A DNA stretch of 60,656 nt, the filler included. It is 7 parts of 7 records of this genome, joined end to end, with 100 filler letters (N's around TTAATTAATTAA, not from the genome) between each part and the next. Parts side by side here need not be neighbours in the genome. Positions count along the whole stretch, not along the records: positions 30,892 to 41,412 come from SRR31156797_29161; 6 more parts are not named here. One strand, written 5' to 3'. The notes beneath the pieces were generated by a model, which searched no databases, was not told the DNA's origin, and worked only from the letters and a program-made list of their open reading frames with translations. Both the position numbers and the translations under genes were made by a program. Numbering within the stretch: position 1 is the stretch's first letter; every line of letters starts with the position of its first letter. Shown here piece after piece: positions 7,454-53,925 of this stretch.

Positions 7454-7553
7454 NNNNNNNNNNNNNNNNNNNNNNNNNNNNNNNNNNNNNNNNNNNNTTA
7501 ATTAATTAANNNNNNNNNNNNNNNNNNNNNNNNNNNNNNNNNNNNNNNNNNNN
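7454..7553. other. Artificial contig spacer
   Basis: N44-TTAATTAATTAA-N44 (stops in all six frames); composition changes across it. Confidence 0.98.
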
Positions 7554-20221: not shown

Positions 20222-20321
20222 NNNNNNNNNNNNNNNNNNNNNNNNNNNNNNNNNNNNNNNNNNNNTTAATTAATTAANNNNNNNNNNNNNNNNNNNNNNN
20301 NNNNNNNNNNNNNNNNNNNNN
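20222..20321. other. Artificial contig spacer
   Basis: N44-TTAATTAATTAA-N44. Confidence 0.98.
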
Positions 20322-25582: not shown

Positions 25583-25682
25583 NNNNNNNNNNNNNNNNNN
25601 NNNNNNNNNNNNNNNNNNNNNNNNNNTTAATTAATTAANNNNNNNNNNNNNNNNNNNNNNNNNNNNNNNNNNNNNNNNNNNN
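25583..25682. other. Artificial contig spacer
   Basis: N44-TTAATTAATTAA-N44. Confidence 0.98.
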
Positions 25683-30791: not shown

Positions 30792-30891
30792 NNNNNNNNN
30801 NNNNNNNNNNNNNNNNNNNNNNNNNNNNNNNNNNNTTAATTAATTAANNNNNNNNNNNNNNNNNNNNNNNNNNNNNNNNNNNNNNNNNNNN
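30792..30891. other. Artificial contig spacer
   Basis: N44-TTAATTAATTAA-N44. Confidence 0.98.
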
Positions 30892-31160
30892 TCCTTCTCC
30901 TTATCTACTTCCTTTTGCATCCGAAACATAAGGTTTCGTAAATGATGTATTAAGACTCGATAGAAAAAGTTATTCCAATCTTCATCGAGTCTTGCTGTAT
31001 CTACAGCCTTAACCACAGCGAAATAGGCCTCTTGTAGAAACTCTTCCTTATCTATACCGCGATGCAGTCGATTTGCAAATATTCTGATCTGCATTTCGTA
31101 ACGCTTATGCAGTTCAGCATAGTTTTTTTCGGCCACTAGTGTTTGATCGTCTTTATCCAA
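30892..31160 (-). CDS. Phage-encoded sigma-70 family factor (region 2), 3' truncated
   Basis: 'YAELHKRYE...IDKEEFLQEAYFAVVKAV...NFFYRVLIHHLRNLM' resembles sigma region 2; TTG start with AAGGGGG RBS. Confidence 0.7.
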
Positions 31161-31423
31161 CAGACACCCCCTTCTAACTACTCATATACGCTAATGCGCT
31201 CCCCTTTGCCTATATCGCTCCTCTAGCGAGCATAGACTACCTATGAAATTTCCCCTCCCGGGAGGTGAAACTTTCACCCGTATTATCAGTAATGTCAAGT
31301 ACATTTTTGACAACTCTAGCATCTTTTTTTTAAACAAGTGTTCTCATACCTTTGTATGACACCGGTCCTGAAAAAACGTTACAGAACTTATGCACAAGTG
31401 TATGATAAATGTATGACACGGCC

Positions 31424-31783
31424 CTATTTCCTTAGGACATGAAAATATATTTCCTTAGGTGGTGTTTCGTAGTAGTGAAGGATGCAACCGCACAGCCAGC
31501 CGACCTCTTCTCCCATTGTATACCAAGCACCCTTCCCCTCATTCCTGAGGTGCACAAGGTGTCCAGCACTAGGAAAAAAGGAGTCTGAGAACTGAAGAGT
31601 ATATTCTCCTGTATAGGTCTGTCCTTTAGTTCCACTGATTTGATTTAAGTAGGTCTGAAGCATCTGGGGGACCCCAGATACGAGAGGCTCATCTACCATA
31701 TCCACTTTATGGTCAGTCACCATGGCAAGAGTGGCTGAAATAATCGACAATTCAATATTGAGTATGGAATTTCCTGATTTCAT
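31424..31783 (-). CDS. DUF6717-like protein
   Basis: 'DEPLVSG', 'LQFS...FP', 'GAWY...GWLC...YYETPPKEIY' pattern; AGGAG RBS places the start at 31783. Confidence 0.65.
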   Translation of the reverse strand: MKSGNSILNIELSIISATLAMVTDHKVDMVDEPLVSGVPQMLQTYLNQISGTKGQTYTGEYTLQFSDSFFPSAGHLVHLRNEGKGAWYTMGEEVGWLCGCILHYYETPPKEIYFHVLRK

Positions 31784-31810
31784 ATTGTCTCCTATATTAC
31801 TCATACACTG

Positions 31811-31841
31811 AAAAAAAAGAGCCCTCATCGGGGCTCTTTTT
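31811..31841 (-). terminator. Intrinsic (bidirectional-capable) terminator
   Basis: AAAAGAGCCC-tcatcg-GGGCTCTTTT, with T8 on the minus strand. Confidence 0.8.
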
Positions 31842-31895
31842 CAGGCCTTTTCACATTGTAAGACCTGCGGATAAATAAGTAAAGAAGACAGAAAA

Positions 31896-32045
31896 TTACT
31901 TCAAGATGCGATATTCTTGACCGGCGCGGATCGACTCCAGTGTACCGGGGATACGAAATGACTTTTCAGCCACGATAGCAGAATATTCCTTCTCCTTCTT
32001 TTCCTGTTTCACCTGTTCATTTAAAATACTGAATATATGTCTCAT
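31896..32045 (-). CDS. Small hypothetical phage protein, 49 aa (absent from the ORF track)
   Basis: MRHIFSILNEQVKQEKKEKEYSAIVAEKSFRIPGTLESIRAGQEYRILK; ATG lies 1 nt after the upstream stop. Confidence 0.6.
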   Translation of the reverse strand: MRHIFSILNEQVKQEKKEKEYSAIVAEKSFRIPGTLESIRAGQEYRILK

Positions 32046-32046
32046 G

Positions 32047-32187
32047 CTATACCCACCCTAGCTCTTTAGCTATTTTGTCTGCAATATCTTGGATGTCATC
32101 GTCTACGTAGACGGCGTTGTCATCCCCCAATTCCGCTTCAAGAAGAGCATCCTGCTCTTCTTGAACTGATTGTTCCCTTATATCCAT
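32047..32187 (-). CDS. Small acidic hypothetical phage protein, 46 aa
   Basis: MDIREQSVQEEQDALLEAELG...; GAGGT RBS overlaps the end of the upstream AAA gene. Confidence 0.65.
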   Translation of the reverse strand: MDIREQSVQEEQDALLEAELGDDNAVYVDDDIQDIADKIAKELGWV

Positions 32188-32189
32188 AC

Positions 32190-34373
32190 TTACCTCAACT
32201 TCAGCATGGCCCAGACCTTCCAGCCCGGATCGTCCAGAGTCTTCCCTTTCCGCTCCCATGCTCTTGCCGTAGAAACTGCATCACGGAACTTCCGAAAGTC
32301 CATCTGCCTAATAGAGCCGCTCTTTTCGACCAGAAACTCCCAAACCTTAACTTTGTACTCCAGAGAAACCTCGGGGTACTGGCCGAGCAGATCTCCCAGA
32401 ATAGTTCTCATGTATTCAAGGGTCTGCTCTACCGTCATGTCGATCTTGATTTCTGCACAACGTGAAAGCAGAGCCTCAGGGAAGTTCATCATATTGGAAA
32501 CGATGATTATCTTTGACAGGAACTGGAACTTCTCAGGGGGAGCTCCGACGTTCATGAATGCGCCATCACCGTATTCCACTCCATCGTCGGAAGTGAAGTC
32601 GATCTCTTCTTCCTTTAGAGCTCTCATGTCCTGCACATGTGCATAATCAGCTTCATCCAGCTCAAACAGCATATTTCCGCTGTCATCGACAGATATCGTA
32701 CTGGGTCCAGCAGACTCCTTTTTGATATAGGAGATCCAGCGATCCTCGGCATCGGATTGCAAAGCGGCTTTCAGGAAGTTCTGAGAGTCCTTGTTGGTGA
32801 TGAACTGATCCATATCATCCAGAATTAGGATTGTATCCCGTGCATGCCTCCAGAGAAGCTGAAGAATACCAGTCTTACCTGCTACCGATCCAGTATAAAC
32901 AAAGAAGTCCCGATCTGGAGCAAGACCCATTGCCTTGAACTTCTTCTTGATGGTGAAGGACTTTCCGATACCGGCCTGCCCATAGAGGATCAGACCATTA
33001 ACCATAGGGTCCCCTGCCCCCATCTGCTCAAGCGTCGCATCCAGAATATCGTAAACGACTAAGTGCTCATTTTCGATGATCTCTGTCTGGAACCGCTCAA
33101 CATCAGGCCGCTCTTCCGGAGGAGTAATAGGTTGTTCCTGCCGTGGACGGCGCCGTGTAGCCGCTGTAACATTCAGCGAAAGCCCTTCTGCTTCAAAGTG
33201 CTTCTGAATATTCCGCATCAGGGTAGTCCGGTTCTTCGGCTGCTCATTTACATCCTGACAGTACTGGGTGTAGTCATCCAATACTTCCTGCCAACCACTG
33301 TAGCGTCCAGACTGAAGGTCACTCATTACGTTACCCGTCTGCATGAAGTTCATAACAACATTGTTGACTCTCTGACGCTCATCCAGAGATACAGCCTCCC
33401 AAATATCCTCACCACGGACCATCAGCTCGATGTCAGCGATAGTCTGCACAATGTTCAGCCCGTTTAGTGCCAGGTTCACATCAGGGGCTTCGGAGGGGCC
33501 TGCGAAATAGTCTACGGAAATGACCTCATCTGACTTGCCCAGCAGGAAGTTAACTCTCAGGGCTTTATCCCCTCCATCGAAGAATGCCATATACCCAGCG
33601 AACTTTCCTTCTGAGGTCTGGTATGTGCGAGGGATGTCGGAGAGCATAAACTCAGTTCCGAGCCGTCTTCCCAATACATTCAGCATTTTCTCTACGACCT
33701 TCAGGGCATCCCCAGAGGCAAACTTGGCCTCTTGTAAGGCGTCTTTCTTATCCACGATTTGATTCTCCTGTTGATTCTTACTATTCAAATATGTCTGGTA
33801 TCTTTCCCAGAGCTTTTGAGTGATAAGGTAGAAAGATGAGCTACTACCTCGACTGGCATCCCTCTGAGAGTTCTTTTTATTTGCGAAGAAGAACTTCTCC
33901 GGTACTCTTCCGAGCCCTTGCTCCTCAATCGTCTTACTAGTCATGTAATACATGGCCGTTAATCTTGGGTGAGCTGTACAGAACGTCAGGCAGTTGATCT
34001 GTACTTTCCTCAAAAAGATTTCAATACTCTTAAGAACATTTCCCAAAACCAAGGGGCCGATCCCCCCGCGAAGCTCTCTCATTCCCGTTCGGTTGTTTCG
34101 AAAGGTCAGGTTGTAGCTTTTATTTAGCTTCACTACATCACTACGCTCAGGATATTCCTGACGGGACATATGAGCATTGTTCTGAGATGGTCCGGTGATG
34201 CTTACCTCGTAGACGATTGAATCCCATTCATCGCTTAGCTGACCACCTTGCTCGGGGTCCCAAAGATGCGGGTAATCCTCTCTACGGACAGTAAACTCTG
34301 CTTGCAGACCTTCATTGTTCACAGATCTTATGAACAGAGGGACTTTCATACGTCCCCTTTCTTGCAACTGCAC
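32190..34373 (-). CDS. Multidomain phage protein with C-terminal AAA+ ATPase (probable virion-internal protein)
   Basis: Walker A GQAGIGKS, Walker B ILILDD, sensor 'VSN', 'ALLSRC'; AGGAG RBS plus GTG start. Confidence 0.75.
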   Translation of the reverse strand: MQLQERGRMKVPLFIRSVNNEGLQAEFTVRREDYPHLWDPEQGGQLSDEWDSIVYEVSITGPSQNNAHMSRQEYPERSDVVKLNKSYNLTFRNNRTGMRELRGGIGPLVLGNVLKSIEIFLRKVQINCLTFCTAHPRLTAMYYMTSKTIEEQGLGRVPEKFFFANKKNSQRDASRGSSSSFYLITQKLWERYQTYLNSKNQQENQIVDKKDALQEAKFASGDALKVVEKMLNVLGRRLGTEFMLSDIPRTYQTSEGKFAGYMAFFDGGDKALRVNFLLGKSDEVISVDYFAGPSEAPDVNLALNGLNIVQTIADIELMVRGEDIWEAVSLDERQRVNNVVMNFMQTGNVMSDLQSGRYSGWQEVLDDYTQYCQDVNEQPKNRTTLMRNIQKHFEAEGLSLNVTAATRRRPRQEQPITPPEERPDVERFQTEIIENEHLVVYDILDATLEQMGAGDPMVNGLILYGQAGIGKSFTIKKKFKAMGLAPDRDFFVYTGSVAGKTGILQLLWRHARDTILILDDMDQFITNKDSQNFLKAALQSDAEDRWISYIKKESAGPSTISVDDSGNMLFELDEADYAHVQDMRALKEEEIDFTSDDGVEYGDGAFMNVGAPPEKFQFLSKIIIVSNMMNFPEALLSRCAEIKIDMTVEQTLEYMRTILGDLLGQYPEVSLEYKVKVWEFLVEKSGSIRQMDFRKFRDAVSTARAWERKGKTLDDPGWKVWAMLKLR

Positions 34374-34429
34374 AGTGATCTCTCCTACGTTATTTCTTAC
34401 TCTTTAATAGTGAGAAAAGGGGCAGAATG

Positions 34430-34454
34430 AAAAAGCCGCCCGTGAGAGCGGCTT
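34430..34454 (-). terminator. Intrinsic terminator after phage polA
   Basis: Minus strand AAGCCGC-tctcacgg-GCGGCTT followed by T-tract. Confidence 0.75.
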
Positions 34455-34473
34455 GGGGAGTGAGGAGATTACC

Positions 34474-37323
34474 TTATGCGGCTACAGCCTCGACTTCCTC
34501 TTTATTTGATAGTTCCGGAAAAAGATCTTTGAAAGTTTCACCTTCCCATACCGGTGCAGATCCCCAGTACGTACGCTTTTCCTCAACTGGGTGAACCGGG
34601 TAGGCAATATCCGCTTCCGCAGTGAAGCTGATACCGTTGTATTCAGGGTAGTCCTTCTCCATATTCTCTTTGATGATTCGGTATGCTTCAGCCATTTCAT
34701 CCTTATGGATGTACTTGTTAACCGCGTCATGGATCATCCCAAAGAGGAAGGACTGCATCTTATTCTTCTCGAAATCGACATGAATACCGGTCATAGCCCG
34801 AGCCACAACAGCAACCTCAAAGTTCTGCACTCTGGAGTTGACTGCAATGTTCTCCCATCCCCCGACTTCTTTCTTATCCGAGTCCTTCCCTATATAGGTG
34901 AGCTGTGGGAGGAGTCGGCGAGCTCCGTGTAGACACCGGATATACCCCATTTCCTTCGCCTCATTATGGCATTCTTCAATCCAAGGCTGGAGTCTCTTGT
35001 ATCTCCCAAAGAACGACTCGTGCACGAACCCAGCCACGAGAAGTGCAATTTCTTGGAAGTTTCTCTTTAGCAGACCGGTAAAATCTCCTTCAAGTTTTCC
35101 TAGCCGTTTCAGGGATTTTTCATCAGTGGCCCCCTTAAGGGATTCAATTTCCGCCTTCAAAGCCTGAAGAGTATCAAACACAGTTTTCAGTGAGGAACCA
35201 CTGTCTGTTGGATTGAGTTCCATCTCCAGACTGAACTCAAAACACTCGGAAGGCTTCCAGTCTTTCATGATTACATTAAAGCACACTCCGTATACTGTTG
35301 AACCAAAAAGCATTCCGAAGTTCGCTCCTTTGGCTTTCTGCCTAGCATTCTTACAGAACGGTGAAACCTTCTTAAATCGCAGGAAATCATCAAGCTCAAC
35401 GACCTTGTGCACTTCCCCAATTTGTACCGCTCCTTCCTTCAAAAGTTTGTGTCTATCATCTGACTTCGGTGTGATGTCCCACAGAAGCTCATCGGTGCTA
35501 CCGTCCGGGAACTGCCATTTTATGTACTTCATCGGGAAGTTACAGAATATTGCATGACCCGTCAGGCTGTGCATATCCCCGTGTCCCATAAAGATCTCTC
35601 TCATAACTGGGTCTTCTGAAAGCACTGCACCGATCCTGAGCTGAAGCCCATCAAAGTCGGTCTCGGATATAAGGAAGTCATCCGAGGGAACTGCAAAGCA
35701 CATTCTGATGAGCTTCGCAATGGCTCCATGCTTGGGATAGTTCTGGAGGTTTGGGTTATTGCACCGGAGTCTGTGCGAGTTCGCCATCATGACAAGGAAG
35801 TTCGGGTGAAGCTTCTCGTCCACTCCCATATACTTCCAGAAACCTTTTCCCTGCTCTTCCAAGCCCACAAAGGTGCCCTGTGCGGTGACATACTTCTGCC
35901 GCTTAGCTATGAGGTCAGCCCCTTCAAGCCCCAGCTCTACCCATTCTTTGACCGTATCTTTATTGATCTTGTAGAAGCCTTTCTTATCTCTGTCGATCTC
36001 AGGCCAACCGAGAGCTTCCAACTTCAGTGCAAATTCATCACCATTGAAGTTAATCTCACCAAAGTACTGGTGCATCTCCTTCTCTATATTCTTTATGATT
36101 CCCGTGAATTCAGCTCCTACCTTGCGAACCATATCCCAAGCCAGAGTTACACCGGCCAGCTCAATGTCCGGGAAGATCCGCACGAAAGGCATCACGATAT
36201 TCCAGAAGTAGTCATTCAGTGTAGGTTCACGGGCTAGTTGCTCCTTCATACGCTCATACACCTGAAATGTTACGATGGCGTCCATGGTGGCGTATTCCCT
36301 TAAGATGGGCTCAGGGATATCCGCATAGCTATCCATTTTCTTATACTGATGTTTGAACAGCTCCAGTTCCAGATCATAGCCGCCGTAAGTAGTGTATAGC
36401 CATCCATGCGTTTTCAGAGAGTTACTGCGCATTTCATTAAGGATGTGACCGGCATGCATGGTGTCAAAATCCACCTTTAGGTTTTTAAAAGGGTAGATCC
36501 ACTTCATAAACTTCAGGTCGAATTTCAGGTTTGCCCCTACCTGAAACTTATTCGCCATGAACTCATCAAAAAGCTCCAAATCTTTCAAATCCTTGAAGCG
36601 GAGGTAATACCCATCCAAACCATTGAAGGTGATTGTGAGGCATATAATATAGCCCCTCTGGTAATCTAAGGAGCTGGTCTCAAGGTCCCATGCACAGACT
36701 TTCTTACTCCAGTTCTCTCGCATCCACTGTACTGGATCCTCAACCAGAAACTTCCCAAGGAGTGGCGTTCTGCGGGGGACGCACACAAACTTAAGAGCTC
36801 GCCTGATCTGATCTTTCAGGAACTTCAAGTAGAAATTATCTAAACCCCGTCTTTGACCAGCGTTATACCACTTGAAACCGGGGTCTACTGGAAAGACCTG
36901 ACACTGGAGGTTCGGTGCATAGAAGTGAGTTTCTTGGAAATTACTGTCATAGAAACCTTCAACTTTGATGTCGGAGTCCATAGTGACACCCATCAAAGCA
37001 CGTCCAAGAGTAATTACTTTCTTATGTGCAGGTATATATTTCCTTATATCAAGTGCATTCTTGATATAGAAGTTAGTTGGATTTTTGGATATCTCACTTG
37101 ACTTAACATTCAATCCGAATGTATTTATCACTTGAAATCCAACTTCAGGAAACAAAGTCTGCATATGACGAATAAGATAATTAATTTCCCCGATACCTTT
37201 TGTTTCAGTCAAAAAGTAAACATCATGGTTTGTATGGAATGACTTAAAAAGTATTGGATTGATTTCTTTTCCCTGAAACTTCTTAGTTATTGTTGCTTTC
37301 TTTTTCTTAAGCGGGCTAGGCAA
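34474..37323 (-). CDS. polA: Phage family A DNA polymerase with 3'-5' exonuclease and N-terminal degenerate UDG-like domain
   Basis: Exo 'WDLETS', 'NLKFD', 'YATMDA'; Pol 'NPNLQN', motif A 'DFDGLQLR', motif B 'RQKAKGANFG', motif C 'IHD'; GAGGAGG RBS plus TTG at 37323. Confidence 0.92.
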   Translation of the reverse strand: MPSPLKKKKATITKKFQGKEINPILFKSFHTNHDVYFLTETKGIGEINYLIRHMQTLFPEVGFQVINTFGLNVKSSEISKNPTNFYIKNALDIRKYIPAHKKVITLGRALMGVTMDSDIKVEGFYDSNFQETHFYAPNLQCQVFPVDPGFKWYNAGQRRGLDNFYLKFLKDQIRRALKFVCVPRRTPLLGKFLVEDPVQWMRENWSKKVCAWDLETSSLDYQRGYIICLTITFNGLDGYYLRFKDLKDLELFDEFMANKFQVGANLKFDLKFMKWIYPFKNLKVDFDTMHAGHILNEMRSNSLKTHGWLYTTYGGYDLELELFKHQYKKMDSYADIPEPILREYATMDAIVTFQVYERMKEQLAREPTLNDYFWNIVMPFVRIFPDIELAGVTLAWDMVRKVGAEFTGIIKNIEKEMHQYFGEINFNGDEFALKLEALGWPEIDRDKKGFYKINKDTVKEWVELGLEGADLIAKRQKYVTAQGTFVGLEEQGKGFWKYMGVDEKLHPNFLVMMANSHRLRCNNPNLQNYPKHGAIAKLIRMCFAVPSDDFLISETDFDGLQLRIGAVLSEDPVMREIFMGHGDMHSLTGHAIFCNFPMKYIKWQFPDGSTDELLWDITPKSDDRHKLLKEGAVQIGEVHKVVELDDFLRFKKVSPFCKNARQKAKGANFGMLFGSTVYGVCFNVIMKDWKPSECFEFSLEMELNPTDSGSSLKTVFDTLQALKAEIESLKGATDEKSLKRLGKLEGDFTGLLKRNFQEIALLVAGFVHESFFGRYKRLQPWIEECHNEAKEMGYIRCLHGARRLLPQLTYIGKDSDKKEVGGWENIAVNSRVQNFEVAVVARAMTGIHVDFEKNKMQSFLFGMIHDAVNKYIHKDEMAEAYRIIKENMEKDYPEYNGISFTAEADIAYPVHPVEEKRTYWGSAPVWEGETFKDLFPELSNKEEVEAVAA

Positions 37324-37363
37324 GTGTTCCTCCTCATAGATTGTGAATATCGTTTCCAAAGAG

Positions 37364-37394
37364 TAAGTACACCAACAAAGCATTTTTTAGAGAA
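37364..37394 (-). promoter_or_regulatory. Putative phage-sigma promoter upstream of polA
   Basis: TTCTCTAAAAA-N12-TGTACTTA; identical boxes and spacing at 40735-40765. Confidence 0.65.
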
Positions 37395-37469
37395 ATTATT
37401 AAATCGTTACTGGACTTTGAAATATTTAGCTGATTGAAGTAAAATACAATATATGTTATCAATCAAAAC

Positions 37470-37498
37470 TTGACATCGAAAAGATGGCATGTTAGTTT
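37470..37498 (+). promoter_or_regulatory. Sigma70-type promoter for the 122-aa ORF
   Basis: TTGACA-N17-TAGTTT with extended TG. Confidence 0.65.
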
Positions 37499-37564
37499 TG
37501 CATACGTTAAGTGAACACGGATGATACGTATCCAACTATCGATATGTAAAAGAGGATAAATAAA

Positions 37565-37933
37565 ATGAGTAAAAGTAAAGACTTCCGTAAACTTCATAAA
37601 CTTCTGAAAGAGCAAACTGAACTTGCAAAAAGAATTTCAGATGGACTTCAAATGATTCACCATATAATGAGTGAATATCAAATTAAAAGTGCTGAAGATA
37701 TTCTCTCAATAACTGAAAAATGCGATTCCGTTGATGACGTATATAAAGCGGCAAAAACTATAAACATTTCGACAGATTGTTTGATTGCCGAAGTTACAAA
37801 AGAAGAGCTTGATACCACAATTCAACAAATTGTCATGGGTGGTGGTGGATTAGTATGTTACTTTAATGAAGGTGAAAATTATTATATTTCATATACACCC
37901 ATTGAAAACTTTTCATCAGATTATTTTATTTAA
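37565..37933 (+). CDS. Hypothetical phage protein (AT-rich, opposite strand to neighbours)
   Basis: 122-aa ORF with AGAGGA RBS and its own promoter; no recognisable motif. Confidence 0.7.
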   Translation: MSKSKDFRKLHKLLKEQTELAKRISDGLQMIHHIMSEYQIKSAEDILSITEKCDSVDDVYKAAKTINISTDCLIAEVTKEELDTTIQQIVMGGGGLVCYFNEGENYYISYTPIENFSSDYFI

Positions 37934-38552
37934 TTAACTTTTTCCTTTTTGTTATTTTTTCACTGTTAAAACCTTTAAATTGACCGAGACTTGCATATTC
38001 GTGAACATCAAATATGCTAAGTCTAGGTTTCTCTATATAGCTCCTTTCATATACAAACCAGCCAGTAACCAGCCCTCCTAAATGATATAGACCGTCCTCT
38101 CTGTAGGTTGTTCTGTAGTCAACCTGCCGGTTGAACACATACACATCCCGAAGACCGTTCCATATACCATTCCGGCTTCTTCCGACACATCCGTAATAGT
38201 TCATACGTCCTAGAACAACAAGCTTCTGAGGGTTTAGCTCTTTGGCTCTAAAAACAAAGGCATCCCAGAGGTCAAAGGGAGGATTCATCAGAATCTCTCC
38301 ATCCCATGAGTCAAACTCCTCGGAGAGTAGGAAGTCATGCCCCTGCATGAGATCCCTTTCGGTAATTTGGACACCGGGTTGTTTCTGTTTCAAAGCTTTT
38401 CCAAGGGCCCTATACCCACAGCAGGGGTCAAGGACGTTATGAAACTGCTCAGCTTCCGAAAGCGCCCATGTCAGGCTGAATGGTGTATGGTATAGATCAT
38501 TATCAGGTCGGTCATTGGCCTTTTTACGGCTCAAGTATGCTTTTCCACTCAT
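37926..38552 (-). CDS. Orphan amino-DNA methyltransferase (N6-adenine/N4-cytosine)
   Basis: 'DLYHTP', motif I 'LDPCCG', motif IV 'NPPF'; ATGA-coupled to primase. Confidence 0.85.
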   Translation of the reverse strand: MSGKAYLSRKKANDRPDNDLYHTPFSLTWALSEAEQFHNVLDPCCGYRALGKALKQKQPGVQITERDLMQGHDFLLSEEFDSWDGEILMNPPFDLWDAFVFRAKELNPQKLVVLGRMNYYGCVGRSRNGIWNGLRDVYVFNRQVDYRTTYREDGLYHLGGLVTGWFVYERSYIEKPRLSIFDVHEYASLGQFKGFNSEKITKRKKLIK

Positions 38553-39583
38553 ATCAGGGCTTCATAGTCCGGGCTTTCCTCAGTCTCGAATAGATTAAAG
38601 AAATCGATCAACCATTCTGTTGATCGACTTAAGTTCTGCATCGCGGCATGAATTTCCTCCGATGAAGCGTCACCCGGATCATTCCCCTCCCTCTCAAGGA
38701 ACGCGATTCTGAACTCTCTGGGATAAGCAGCTTCCACATTCAGCACAAACTGCCGCCCTCCATCATCAGTATCAGGAAAGAGGATAAGGTCTGGTATTAG
38801 AGTGAGCTGTTGGATCTGAATTCCTGTCAGTTGAATTCCGAAAGTGGTGGACACATTTCTGTACCCGGCCTGCCAGACTTGGAAGAGGTCCATCAACCCC
38901 TCCACCACGATGACTGGCTTACTCAGGTCAAGATCCCCGAAGTTGAAGAGTAGGTTTGTAGTTGCTCCTTTCGGGTACAGGACCTTTTTCTCACCGGGAT
39001 CAGACTGAAGCGCCCTACCTTCTAGCGAAGCAAGCGCCCCGTACTCGTTGTAAATTGGAATTGTAAGTCGATTCCGAAAAGTGTTCACATTGGCGATAGA
39101 GTGCTCAGCTACCTTGATTCCAAAATGTGCAATAGTTTCTGGTGCAATTCTCCGGTGCGAGCAATAATACCGGGCCATGGGGACCTCCATGACTTCCTTC
39201 AGCGCTCCTCCAGTGATCACAACCCGGTCATCAGTCTCCTTTCGAAAGGCCGTGCGATCCTTCTTTTCATACGTCCGTAGATTCCCTTCGAAAGCTTTAT
39301 CTGAAAGGAAGCTGGAGTCAACAGAAAACGCCTTAATAAGAGACTCCCCTGTCACCTCCCGGAAGAGAGAGTAAATGTTCCCGCTGAAATCCCCGGCAAA
39401 ATCAATAACACGACCCGACTCCTTGTAATATACACAGGATGGGTTTTTGTCGGTTCGGAAAGGTGACGAAAATGACAGAAGATGGCCTTTATCTACGAAG
39501 CTTATCCCCATGGTGTGGAAGATGGTCTCCACGCCTATATTAGCTACAATCTCTTTGAAGACTGCGGGATCTATGTCAGGCAC
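38549..39583 (-). CDS. dnaG: DnaG-type primase (TOPRIM)
   Basis: 'FRNRLTIPI', 'EGRAL', 'VIVVEGLMD', 'FPDTDDGG', 'NDPGD'. Confidence 0.88.
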   Translation of the reverse strand: MPDIDPAVFKEIVANIGVETIFHTMGISFVDKGHLLSFSSPFRTDKNPSCVYYKESGRVIDFAGDFSGNIYSLFREVTGESLIKAFSVDSSFLSDKAFEGNLRTYEKKDRTAFRKETDDRVVITGGALKEVMEVPMARYYCSHRRIAPETIAHFGIKVAEHSIANVNTFRNRLTIPIYNEYGALASLEGRALQSDPGEKKVLYPKGATTNLLFNFGDLDLSKPVIVVEGLMDLFQVWQAGYRNVSTTFGIQLTGIQIQQLTLIPDLILFPDTDDGGRQFVLNVEAAYPREFRIAFLEREGNDPGDASSEEIHAAMQNLSRSTEWLIDFFNLFETEESPDYEALI

Positions 39584-40700
39584 TAAGAGGTACCCTCTCT
39601 ACAATTTGACGTACAGGGACTGGATCTTTCTTCTTGGTTTCTGTTTCATGCCCGCTAAGTGTCCGGAGGACCTCAAACTGGAACACATCCTCCCGGAGAT
39701 ATCCCTTCTCCTCTGTTTTTGAGTAGGCATCCATCAAAGCTTCCACCGGAGCACCTTTCAGAGCCTCATAGAGCCGCTTTTGCCACTTATGGGTTACCTT
39801 TCCCGTCAGGTGGTACAGATAAGCATTCAGGAGGGCCTTGCGGGTTTTGTAGAAAACCTCTGAAAAATCAAACTCCTTGAACTTAAGAATTTCTGCATAT
39901 TCATTATGCACAAAAAGCTTGGTGCATATTTGGTCCAGTCGATTGTTTGAGATAAGCCCCAGTTCCGTTGCGACCTCTTCCTCTGTGAACAACTTTGAGC
40001 TCAGGCACCTCTGTAGGTAAACCATCGCCAGCCGCACTGACCCCCGGCAAGCCTGTGCTAGCGTGAAGCACACATTGGTAATAAAGTCCTCATGACTTTC
40101 TGGTAACTCGACCCCTGAAGCAACAGACAGATTGTACAGGTGCTCTGCAATATCGTCCTCGGAAGGGCTTCTGAAATTGTAAGGGGTACATCTAGAAAGA
40201 ATTGCTGTATCGATCTTCTCAGGGTTCATTGTGGTAAGAATCAGGGTCGTCTTCCTATACTTCTTCTCCAGCAGGTTCAGTACAGCACCACGTGAATGGG
40301 AGTTGAGCTCTTGGAACTCATCCAGAATGAAAACTCTGTGCCCACCTGTGAGTGACCGGGAGTTGAGCTGATCCTTCAAAGCCTTAACGTGATCCTTCGT
40401 CATCACTGAGCAGTCGTAGTATTTCACATCCCCGGAATAGGTTTCCTGAATAATGCTCTGGCACACCTGAGACTCCGGATTCGGCTCCTTCACTCCATCA
40501 TCATGGATTATCGGATTCTTATCAGCGATAGTGGCCCCTACCAGCCGCGCCATAGTGGTTTTCCCGGTACCTGTTTGACCCTGAAACACCATTACGGAAG
40601 GGAAAGTTTGAGCTTTGGAATGCTCTTTCATCTCGTTTACAATGAGCTGATGCCCCACGATTGCATCCCAGCTAAACGGTCGTTCTTCTATTGTCAGCAC
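39576..40700 (-). CDS. dnaX: DnaX-like clamp loader AAA+ subunit (gamma/tau-like)
   Basis: 'ERPFSWDAIVGH', 'GQTGTGKTT', 'ILDEFQEL', SRC motif, 'GSVRLA'. Confidence 0.85.
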   Translation of the reverse strand: MLTIEERPFSWDAIVGHQLIVNEMKEHSKAQTFPSVMVFQGQTGTGKTTMARLVGATIADKNPIIHDDGVKEPNPESQVCQSIIQETYSGDVKYYDCSVMTKDHVKALKDQLNSRSLTGGHRVFILDEFQELNSHSRGAVLNLLEKKYRKTTLILTTMNPEKIDTAILSRCTPYNFRSPSEDDIAEHLYNLSVASGVELPESHEDFITNVCFTLAQACRGSVRLAMVYLQRCLSSKLFTEEEVATELGLISNNRLDQICTKLFVHNEYAEILKFKEFDFSEVFYKTRKALLNAYLYHLTGKVTHKWQKRLYEALKGAPVEALMDAYSKTEEKGYLREDVFQFEVLRTLSGHETETKKKDPVPVRQIVERVPLSA

Positions 40701-40734
40701 TGTTTTACTCCAATTTTTGTATTTTCTACCCCTT

Positions 40735-40765
40735 TAAGTACAAGAAAAACTCGATTTTTAGAGAA
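40735..40765 (-). promoter_or_regulatory. Putative phage-sigma promoter upstream of dnaX-dnaG-MTase
   Basis: TTCTCTAAAAA-N12-TGTACTTA, second copy. Confidence 0.65.
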
Positions 40766-40791
40766 TTTATATGAGATATCCGTTCGCAAAC

Positions 40792-40820
40792 TGGACATCG
40801 AATAAGTGTCAAGTTATACT
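40792..40820 (+). promoter_or_regulatory. Sigma70-type promoter for parA
   Basis: TGGACA-N17-TATACT; flanks resemble the 37470 promoter. Confidence 0.65.
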
Positions 40821-40850
40821 GATTTTCATAACTTCAGGAGGCTCGTAAAT

Positions 40851-41412
40851 ATGACAAAAATCATTCTCTTCGGATCAGGGAAAGGCGGTATAGGAAAATC
40901 TGTTTGCTCGGAGTATACAGCTCGACTTGTAGCCGCAAATGGCAAAAGAGCATTGATCATTGATCTTGACCACATGAACGCATCTTCACGCTCTCTTCTT
41001 CCCGGCTATTACGGCGATGGAACTTCCTCAGATACTCGCAAATCTATCAGACGTGTATTTAAAAAAGAAGCTTCACTTCGCTCACAGATTGAAAGGTCGG
41101 AAACCCGTAATGTATATATTGTTCCCGGAGATAGTGATCTTGGACTCTACACTCCTCCCCCATTTATTCTTAAGCAAGCCATTGATGAACTTATGAATGA
41201 CGGTCACCTCCAATACGACTACATCATTATTGACACACATCCGGAAGTCTCTGCGGTTGAGCTTACCGGAGCACATGCCGCTGACCTCATCATCACTCCG
41301 ATCAAGCTGGCGAATGCACCAATGGAAGCCTCGAAAGGGTACGGGGAGTTTTTAGAGTCAAATGGCATTCCTTTGTCGAAATGGAAGGTTTTCATCATGA
41401 GAATGAAAGATA
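40851..41412 (+). CDS. parA: ParA/Soj family ATPase (3' truncated)
   Basis: Deviant Walker A 'KGGIGKS', 'LIIDLD', 'YDYIIIDTHP', 'ADLIITP'; AGGAGG RBS. Confidence 0.88.
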
Positions 41413-41512
41413 NNNNNNNNNNNNNNNNNNNNNNNNNNNNNNNNNNNNNNNNNNNNTTAATTAATTAANNNNNNNNNNNNNNNNNNNNNNNNNNNNNNNN
41501 NNNNNNNNNNNN
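41413..41512. other. Artificial contig spacer
   Basis: N44-TTAATTAATTAA-N44. Confidence 0.98.
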
Positions 41513-53825: not shown

Positions 53826-53925
53826 NNNNNNNNNNNNNNNNNNNNNNNNNNNNNNNNNNNNNNNNNNNNTTAATTAATTAANNNNNNNNNNNNNNNNNNN
53901 NNNNNNNNNNNNNNNNNNNNNNNNN
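53826..53925. other. Artificial contig spacer
   Basis: N44-TTAATTAATTAA-N44. Confidence 0.98.

Follow-up and report, generated by a model that had tools for sequence, protein, structure and literature searches.

In DNA polymerases of family A (PolA), glutamate 710 of the Klenow fragment is the steric gate that checks the sugar and keeps out ribonucleoside triphosphates (rNTPs), and it touches tyrosine 766 of the O helix. Hohlbein 2013 (PMC3715850) calls both residues universally conserved throughout the A family and the hydrogen bond that joins them invariant. This article deals with a PolA gene carried by a window of 60,656 bases (the window being the whole stretch of DNA that was analysed), in which glutamine takes the place of the glutamate and phenylalanine that of the tyrosine. 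Judging from its sequence, the product belongs to a large clade of uncultured viral PolAs, known from metagenomes only, of which these replacements are the hallmark.

Among cultured phages, the closest PolAs are those of Dp-1 (Streptococcus), V-YDF132 (Vibrio), AhSzw-1 (Aeromonas), Strzyga (Brevundimonas), and P74-26 (Thermus), all made of an exonuclease and a polymerase. A MAFFT alignment shows all five enzymes to be canonical at the gate (Glu) and in the O helix (Tyr); at the motif 6 position that corresponds to A852 of Klenow, they carry Ala, Ser, or Leu. When 50,697 phage records were compared by tblastn, identity in the best matches was 20-29% and extended over no more than 59% of the query; no record covers 80% of it.

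DpoZ, the polymerase of 2-aminoadenine phages (phiVC8-like and Wayne-like), is also a viral family A enzyme with proofreading and, as here, a Phe in the O helix. Replacement of Tyr by Phe in this helix is reported as the only substitution common to both DpoZ clades (Czernecki 2021, PMC8599892; 2023, PMC10201439). Phe at B4 is called unique to the DpoZ clusters in a work whose available text makes no mention of a residue other than Glu at A2 (PMC10201439). DpoZ presumably keeps the gate Glu, as Phe is the sole unusual residue that its clades are described as sharing (PMC8599892), whereas the clade of the window polymerase has Gln or His at the gate and a Glu in motif 6. No chain named DpoZ is found in the 60 PDB sequence matches listed (out of 63) for the window polymerase, nor among the best phage-record matches listed.

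Finally, fusions between uracil-DNA glycosylase (UDG) and PolA are found in N4-like cluster 17 and in SPO1, SP-10, and SP-15-like phages, with structures for phiLo and YerA41. They show the same order of UDG fold, exonuclease, and polymerase as the window protein. The sole UDG-PolA fusion in our set (P0106, matching PF03167 and PF00476) has the canonical Glu and Tyr, unlike the window polymerase, and the UDG-like domain of the latter, unlike that of P0106, has no Pfam UDG match.

The window gene is an uninterrupted frame of 969 codons, the parts of which are as follows:

34474..37383, minus strand: family A DNA polymerase gene (P0001), 969 residues; open reading frame (ORF) with Pfam matches PF00476 and PF01612
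36739..37296, minus strand: N-terminal UDG-fold domain, residues 30-215, from fold comparison
36235..36726, minus strand: 3'-5' exonuclease domain, residues 220-383 (PF01612), with D233, E235, D289, Y364, and D368
35761..35781, minus strand: TGR-type motif N-S-H-R-L-R-C, residues 535-541; Arg538 conserved
35761-35775, minus strand: HRLRC within this motif, residues 537-541
35635..35658, minus strand: motif A DFDGLQLR, residues 576-583; Asp576 is the metal ligand, Gln581 occupies the steric-gate position
35641-35643, minus strand: codon CAG of Gln581
35302..35343, minus strand: motif B (O helix) RQKAKGANFGMLFG, residues 681-694; Arg681, Lys685, and Phe689 canonical, Phe693 replacing Tyr
35305-35307, minus strand: codon TTT of Phe693
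34816..34839, minus strand: motif 6 NSRVQNFE, residues 849-856; Asn849 and Gln853 canonical
34816-34818, minus strand: codon of Glu856, an acidic residue at the Klenow A852 position, invariant in the clade
34720..34737, minus strand: motif C MIHDAV; His885 and Asp886 canonical, Ala887 at the Klenow E883 position
34723-34734, minus strand: IHDA within motif C, residues 884-887

The protein belongs to family A, with 137 bits against Pfam DNA_pol_A (PF00476, cut-off 34.3) and 46.1 bits against DNA_pol_A_exo1 (PF01612, cut-off 23.6). All residues of a DnaQ-like exonuclease are there (Exo I D233 and E235, Exo II D289, Exo III Y364 and D368). Pairing with Klenow by phmmer equates D576 with D705, Q581 with E710, R681, K685, F689, and F693 with R754, K758, F762, and Y766, and H885-D886-A887 with H881-D882-E883. 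The motif B stretch taken alone scores only 1.5 bits in this search because about 60 residues are inserted ahead of it, and alignments made with MAFFT and with hmmalign yield the identical pairing. Thus, the residue five positions past the motif A Asp, a Glu in canonical enzymes, is Gln581, and the O-helix Tyr is Phe693. These two mismatches lower the standing of the protein as a canonical member of the family, not its membership of the family A superfamily. The preliminary description of this DNA had already read the four motifs (DFDGLQLR, motif B, IHDA, and HRLRC) as the translation gives them, with exact coordinates for the Gln and Phe codons, and had taken polymerase and exonuclease to be intact, on which Pfam and the catalytic residues agree. 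The range that it gave, 34474-35800, holds for the C-terminal active-site part only, since the gene reaches 37383.

An AlphaFold2 model built from an alignment of 39 relatives has a predicted local distance difference test (pLDDT) score of 91 and a predicted template modelling (TM) score of 0.87. Foldseek matches it to Klenow (1kfs, 1d8y) and to Bst Pol I with E-values of about 1e-26 and TM scores of 0.82-0.87 by target length. With Klenow and Bst Pol I, the window polymerase shares the fold, the exonuclease motifs, the metal-binding Asp, Arg, Lys, and Phe of the O helix, Asn and Gln of motif 6, and His of motif C, at 18% identity in the structural alignment. It differs from Klenow by Gln for E710, Phe for Y766, Glu for A852, and Ala for E883, and by about 60 extra residues ahead of motif B. 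From F693 to N849 there are 156 residues, vs. about 79 by Klenow numbering. Unlike Pol I, it has no 5'-nuclease domain, and the N-terminal UDG-fold domain stands in its place.

Several local features of the model can be added. Between motifs A and B (35530-35665 region, residues 617-661), the window enzyme has an inserted beta-rich stretch of about 45 residues that the family consensus lacks, and model confidence falls to 64 around residues 640-650. Extra helices are found between motif B and motif 6 (residues 697-795). Relatives begin with MxxFF, which has no counterpart in residues 1-29 (37297-37383), a stretch modelled with a pLDDT below 50; translation may in fact begin at a codon further inside.

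The replacement in motif C is ordinary. The preliminary description had pointed to IHDA rather than VHDE as unusual, but HDA is found in V-YDF132 and Strzyga and HDS in AhSzw-1, all three with the canonical Glu and Tyr. The active Tt72 polymerase is reported to have Ser at the E883 position and to keep 76% activity as the S616A variant (PMC9324360). In the clade itself, Ser (95), Ala (62), and Glu (8) occur there.

The clade is large and well separated from canonical enzymes. A word-index search retrieved 101 relatives at 196 bits or more, followed after a sharp fall in score by canonical bacterial Pol I, none of which exceeds 118 bits. In a profile search of 1.84 billion representatives, the best 150 of 52,666 PolA matches all scored at least 561 bits, so that the family comprises more than 150 clusters at 50% identity. 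These results support the earlier suggestion of an uncharacterised PolA subfamily, of which no description was found, and no naturally occurring Gln or His gate in family A was reported in the full-text literature that was searched (few subscription journals, no supplements).

Residues were counted in 249 proteins aligned to the family profile with hmmalign, namely 230 family members, all of them metagenomic relatives, and an outgroup of 19 canonical Pol I. At the gate, the family has Gln in 200 proteins, His in 9, Val in 1, and a gap in 20, with no Glu or Asp, vs. 18 Glu and 1 Asp in the outgroup. In the O helix, the Y766 position is Phe in 164, Tyr in 9, Ile in 2, Val in 1, and a gap in 54, vs. 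Tyr in all 19 outgroup proteins. Intein insertions that were misaligned account for the single Val at the gate and for the Ile and Val of the O helix. The third position lies in motif 6, where all 170 family proteins that cover the A852 position have Glu (60 gaps) and the outgroup has Ala (16), Cys (2), or Ser (1). The preliminary description was silent on this residue, Glu856, as it was on the N-terminal UDG-fold domain and on the make-up of the window from unrelated contigs joined together. The rest of motif 6 is remodelled too, from Q-G-[ST]-A to Q-[NTSDA]-[FYM]-E.

The catalytic machinery around these positions is conserved. Among covering relatives, the metal-binding Asp is found in 210/210 for motif A and in 170/170 for motif C, and the O-helix Arg and Lys are each present in 176 of the 178-179 family sequences concerned. 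Phe689 (Klenow F762) is kept in 149 of the 177 sequences having a residue there, Asn of motif 6 and His of motif C in nearly all covering sequences, and the exonuclease residues in 220-229 of the 230 relatives. In the TGR-type motif, position 536 is Ser (198) or Thr (23), position 537 Gly (91) or His (82), and position 538 invariably Arg (227/227).

The gate and the O helix change together. All three positions are covered by 169 family rows, in which gate, O helix, and motif 6 read Gln-Phe-Glu in 159, His-Tyr-Glu in 8, Gln-Tyr-Glu in 1, and His-Phe-Glu in 1. The co-substitution of Glu to Gln and Tyr to Phe proposed at the outset is therefore borne out, with only 2 mixed rows. In a FastTree phylogeny of 188 rows (the 169 and the 19 outgroup proteins) from which the trait columns had been removed, the family splits from canonical Pol I with a support of 100, and the His/Tyr members are scattered through one subclade of 28 and one deep branch. 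A better modelled IQ-TREE phylogeny of 45 of the 188 rows (the 28-member subclade, the deep branch, 11 other family members, and 5 outgroup proteins) requires five changes of the His-Tyr label, at least four of them forced by supported branches. Hence, the co-variation of the two residues within the clade, which had been suggested as a check, is positive, with at least four separate switches on the tree. Four phylogenetically independent pairs differ at the gate; on average, the O-helix residue changes along with it in 3.4 of them, and in none does it change in the reverse sense. Motif 6 takes part as well. Its Gln (Klenow Q849 position) is kept in 163/170 proteins, and the 7 exceptions are His-gate members, in which it becomes Leu or Ile (7 of 9), indicating that helix Q changes with the gate.

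Part of the clade has interrupted or divided genes. Two sites are occupied by inteins in part of the relatives, one immediately following the TGR-type motif (HRxR|C...) and one in motif B past the Lys. The relatives concerned are P0041, P0043, P0065, P0079, P0084, P0088, P0102, P0194, and P0198, and Pfam Intein_splicing is recorded for several of the intein-bearing proteins. Many other relatives are split: proteins P0075-P0101, of 610-760 residues, end shortly past motif A, and split genes are seen in L005, L006, L008-L013, L015-L017, and L028. In L005, L006, and L028, the matching polymerase pieces lie several hundred to 3,400 bases apart, and in L017 their order is inverted, with the C-terminal one upstream. 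For L008-L013, L015, and L016, no C-terminal polymerase half was found within the locus.

Relatives are found on viral contigs. An alignment-based scan of IMG/VR gave 36 loci, many of them on contigs of 130-155 kb with a G+C content of 27-36%, although the same database yielded no match when the single window protein served as query. L023 carries a T4-like portal gene, of which L025 has a relative. The phage origin put forward in the preliminary description is thus supported through the relatives. In each of the five viral records searched whole (CheckV completeness 100, 100, 92, 86, and 82%), the clade polymerase is the sole PolA ORF, and no PolB or Pol III alpha was found in any of the five with a search for three Pfam families. 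The gene is also placed in replication modules, beside genes for a flap endonuclease, a SNF2 helicase, a primase, and clamp-loader-like proteins. A sole polymerase, an intact exonuclease, and inteins placed in conserved motifs point to a putative role as the essential replicative enzyme.

We therefore consider it fairly probable that the window gene encodes the proofreading replicative PolA of an uncultured tailed virus of about 150 kb, with a rewired, neutral pocket floor compensated by the Glu of motif 6. The enzyme would be a normal two-metal, DNA-templated polymerase of deoxyribonucleoside triphosphates (dNTPs) with proofreading. In the clade, the hydrogen-bonded Glu/Tyr pair is replaced by neutral Gln/Phe or, in a few lineages, by His/Tyr, which sets the floor of its nucleotide pocket apart from that of all characterised relatives. 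In Klenow, E710Q is harmful, yet Gln is fixed in the clade under purifying selection, so something must compensate. We propose Glu856 as the putative compensator, as it is invariant in the clade and its helix co-varies with the gate. The carboxylate would have moved from motif A to helix Q, where Glu856 lies one helical turn past the motif 6 Gln, and it would anchor the Gln or His or close the pocket, standing in for the lost gate carboxylate. The Tyr hydroxyl would be dispensable with Gln and still useful with His. The rewiring would then be a different structural solution to the same job.

Several points weigh against this reading. Klenow E710Q is described as a slow mutator with a low incorporation rate, and its Kd2 for the correct dTTP is 230 µM instead of 0.83 µM, that is about 280-fold weaker binding (PMC3715850), so the clade enzyme would be poor unless compensated. 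The sign test on independent pairs is underpowered (p 0.125-0.5). The search for other polymerases covered three Pfam families only, and two of the five viral records are 82-86% complete. Finally, the window's own element is visible only as 10.5 kb.

The N-terminal domain deserves separate mention. Its model has a pLDDT of 85, and in VIA-align comparisons it matches the UDG of T. maritima (1l9g) with a Z of 13.1 and a root-mean-square deviation of 3.4 over 157 aligned residues, UdgX (6ail) with a Z of 12.4, and the phiLo UDG-PolA (9qhs) with a Z of 9.7, unrelated rows reaching at most 7.5. Foldseek agrees weakly. The domain has no Pfam match, a five-sequence profile gave only chance-level rows in the PDB (E at least 0.23), and none of the glycosylase motifs of family 4 was recognised in a comparison by eye. 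It is probably structural. Some relatives additionally encode a separate UDG.

An alternative is that the pocket was rewired to favour or tolerate a non-canonical dNTP with which the virus would replicate, for example one with a 7-deazaguanine derivative, 2-aminoadenine, or modified deoxyuridine (dU) or thymidine. The O-helix Phe parallels both DpoZ clades (PMC8599892, PMC10201439), and the N-terminal UDG fold recalls the UDG-PolA fusions of modified-thymidine phages. Some relatives also carry genes of nucleotide metabolism:

L023:5185-7740: preQ0 set QueD, QueE, FolE, and QueC, directly upstream of PolA, in a viral record of 146.6 kb rated 100% complete
L044:1489-2607 (372 residues) and L045:1489-2586 (365 residues): short adenylosuccinate synthetase homologues, in two of the five viral records

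FolE and QueE relatives are found in L018 and L024 too, and ThyA-like genes, like the PurA-like ones, in two of the five records. TGT/DpdA (PF01702) was not found in any of these five, two of them 100% complete, which would fit incorporation of the modified base during replication, but DpdA is divergent and a search with the Pfam TGT family may miss it. Against this explanation, Gln, Phe, and Glu are fixed across the clade while the pathway genes are patchy: near PolA in the 36 loci, FolE/QueE occur in 3 (QueD and QueC in L023 only), dUTPase in 5, and UDG in 5. The presence of dUTPase and UDG genes in relatives argues against dU genomes. The PurA-like proteins are nearest to bacterial PurA chains (E 1e-26 to 1e-18), and among cultured phages match those of large Rhizobium, Vibrio, and Mycobacterium phages; no PurZ signature was demonstrated in them. 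They do not support a 2-aminoadenine (Z) genome, no clear PurZ partner having been found. Moreover, Phe has been judged unlikely to affect the choice between adenine and aminoadenine (Czernecki 2023, PMC10201439). The 10.5 kb window contig carries no nucleotide-synthesis gene, and general scans turned up no PurZ, DatZ, or MazZ on it, a search aimed at DatZ and MazZ not having been made. The check for nucleotide-modification genes suggested in the preliminary description thus gives some in relatives, inconsistently among genomes, and none on the window contig. On balance, adaptation to non-canonical dNTPs appears unlikely. A narrower version is that the clade holds a third natural family A pocket and that part of it uses modified purine triphosphates, 7-deazaguanine being inserted during synthesis. 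This idea comes from complete genomes of 147 kb that make preQ0 beside the polymerase gene, with no DpdA detected, and we regard it as speculative, and as somewhat less likely still.

A loosened gate, with tolerance of ribonucleotides or relaxed sugar selectivity, is a further alternative, as the position is the canonical sugar gate and the hydrogen bond to the O-helix Tyr is lost. In Klenow, E710A doubles closure on rUTP, with a K2 of 0.16 vs. 0.083 for the wild type, but the corresponding value for E710Q is 0.056, and Y766F is reported to behave like wild type (Hohlbein 2013, PMC3715850, with Table 1). Exclusion at the gate depends on bulk, in which Gln and His equal Glu, and E710Q closes no better on rUTP; by analogy with Klenow, we therefore expect that Gln or His would still block the 2'-OH and that ribonucleotides would remain excluded. 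Furthermore, Phe689, which supports the gate, is kept in most of the clade, and an intact proofreading exonuclease in a sole polymerase suggests a faithful replicase. A loosened gate is thus very unlikely. The retuned selectivity (for rNTPs, dU, or modified bases) that had been deduced from the two residues has no basis in the sequence, Gln keeping the bulk of Glu.

The codons themselves are supported by a separately assembled contig and by the recurrence of the residues across the clade, two points that bear on the earlier concern that reads might not support them. This contig, of 152,783 bp (run X1, probable source sample), contains the whole gene with 0 differences at a word depth of 93; it is not an independent sample. 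The gene is present, as contigs, in the probable source sample alone, and the second run of this sample holds next to none of its words. Although E710Q is reported as strongly deleterious in Klenow (PMC3715850) and the sequence comes from one sample only, an assembly or sequencing artefact, or a decaying inactive copy, is so improbable that it can be set aside, given the identical contig at depth 93, the same residues in at least 159 distinct protein clusters from many sources, the open frame of 969 codons with the remaining catalytic residues intact, and the failure to find another polymerase in 5/5 related genomes searched for three Pfam families.

The polymerase gene lies on one of seven unrelated contigs that make up the window. 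The joints consist of 44 N, 12 A/T bases, and 44 N. The contig and its other genes, with the spacers, are the following:

30892..41412: polymerase-bearing contig, 10,521 bp, G+C content 0.45, from the map of N runs
7454-7553, 20222-20321, 25583-25682, 30792-30891, 41413-41512, and 53826-53925: spacers, from the same map
32190..34373, minus strand: protein of 727 residues that includes a P-loop ATPase region (phrog_1250, E 7e-18; without Pfam family)
37926..38552, minus strand: DNA methyltransferase-like protein, 208 residues (phrog_799, E 2e-23; one relative, in L002)
38549..39583, minus strand: DnaG-type primase (Toprim), 344 residues (phrog_47, E 4e-33; Pfam Toprim_2; relatives in 8 viral loci)
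39576..40700, minus strand: clamp-loader-like AAA+ protein, 374 residues (phrog_5846, E 4e-37; Pfam DNA_pol3_delta2; relatives in L004 and L011)
On the same 10,521 bp contig: truncated ParA-like gene

The primase and clamp-loader-like genes adjoin the polymerase gene in the window (38549-40700) and also in two relatives (L004, L011), and the 727-residue P-loop protein has no relative in the 36 viral loci. In these loci, the recurrent neighbours are a flap endonuclease (14) and a SNF2 helicase (10); for gene content, 61 of the 78 ORFs picked in L003, L020, and L023 were scanned. In 12 of the 36 loci (L003:9024-10007, L023:9001-9984, L020:8747-9742, and 9 others), the gene directly upstream of that of the polymerase encodes a conserved protein of about 327 residues without Pfam family, possibly an accessory factor of the polymerase; it has no relative on the window contig.

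The other pieces of the window give no access to the host. Their G+C contents, with that of the polymerase contig, range from 0.35 to 0.52, and by Pfam the flanking pieces carry Bacteroidota-type genes (PorZ, SusC/SusD, peptidase S46) as well as archaeal-type ones (CDC48, Nre, SUI1). The source looks like a mixed bin in which adjacency across spacers has no meaning, and a host deduced from the window neighbours was rejected because they sit on separate contigs. Genome collections do not help either: in 185,579 species-representative genomes, the family occurs only on 9 contigs of metagenome-assembled genomes, of 2.5-46 kb, labelled as seven unrelated taxa from Woesearchaeota to Gammaproteobacteria, so that no host could be assigned. 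Such occurrences are typical of mis-binned viral DNA.

With regard to family A as a whole, a replicative viral PolA clade with a rewired pocket compensated by a Glu of motif 6 would have several consequences. The textbook rule by which the Glu gate and its Tyr partner determine sugar selection and fidelity is not absolute, since a large clade in nature does without this pair. The clade has fixed the equivalent of E710Q, which cripples Klenow, and so offers a natural case for the study of compensation. Viral surveys type PolA by the 762 position, to which the clade adds a second informative site, and its members are naturally evolved scaffolds with a neutral pocket floor for enzyme engineering. 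Finally, if the link with 7-deazaguanine were true, it would bear on how such base-modified viral DNA is made.

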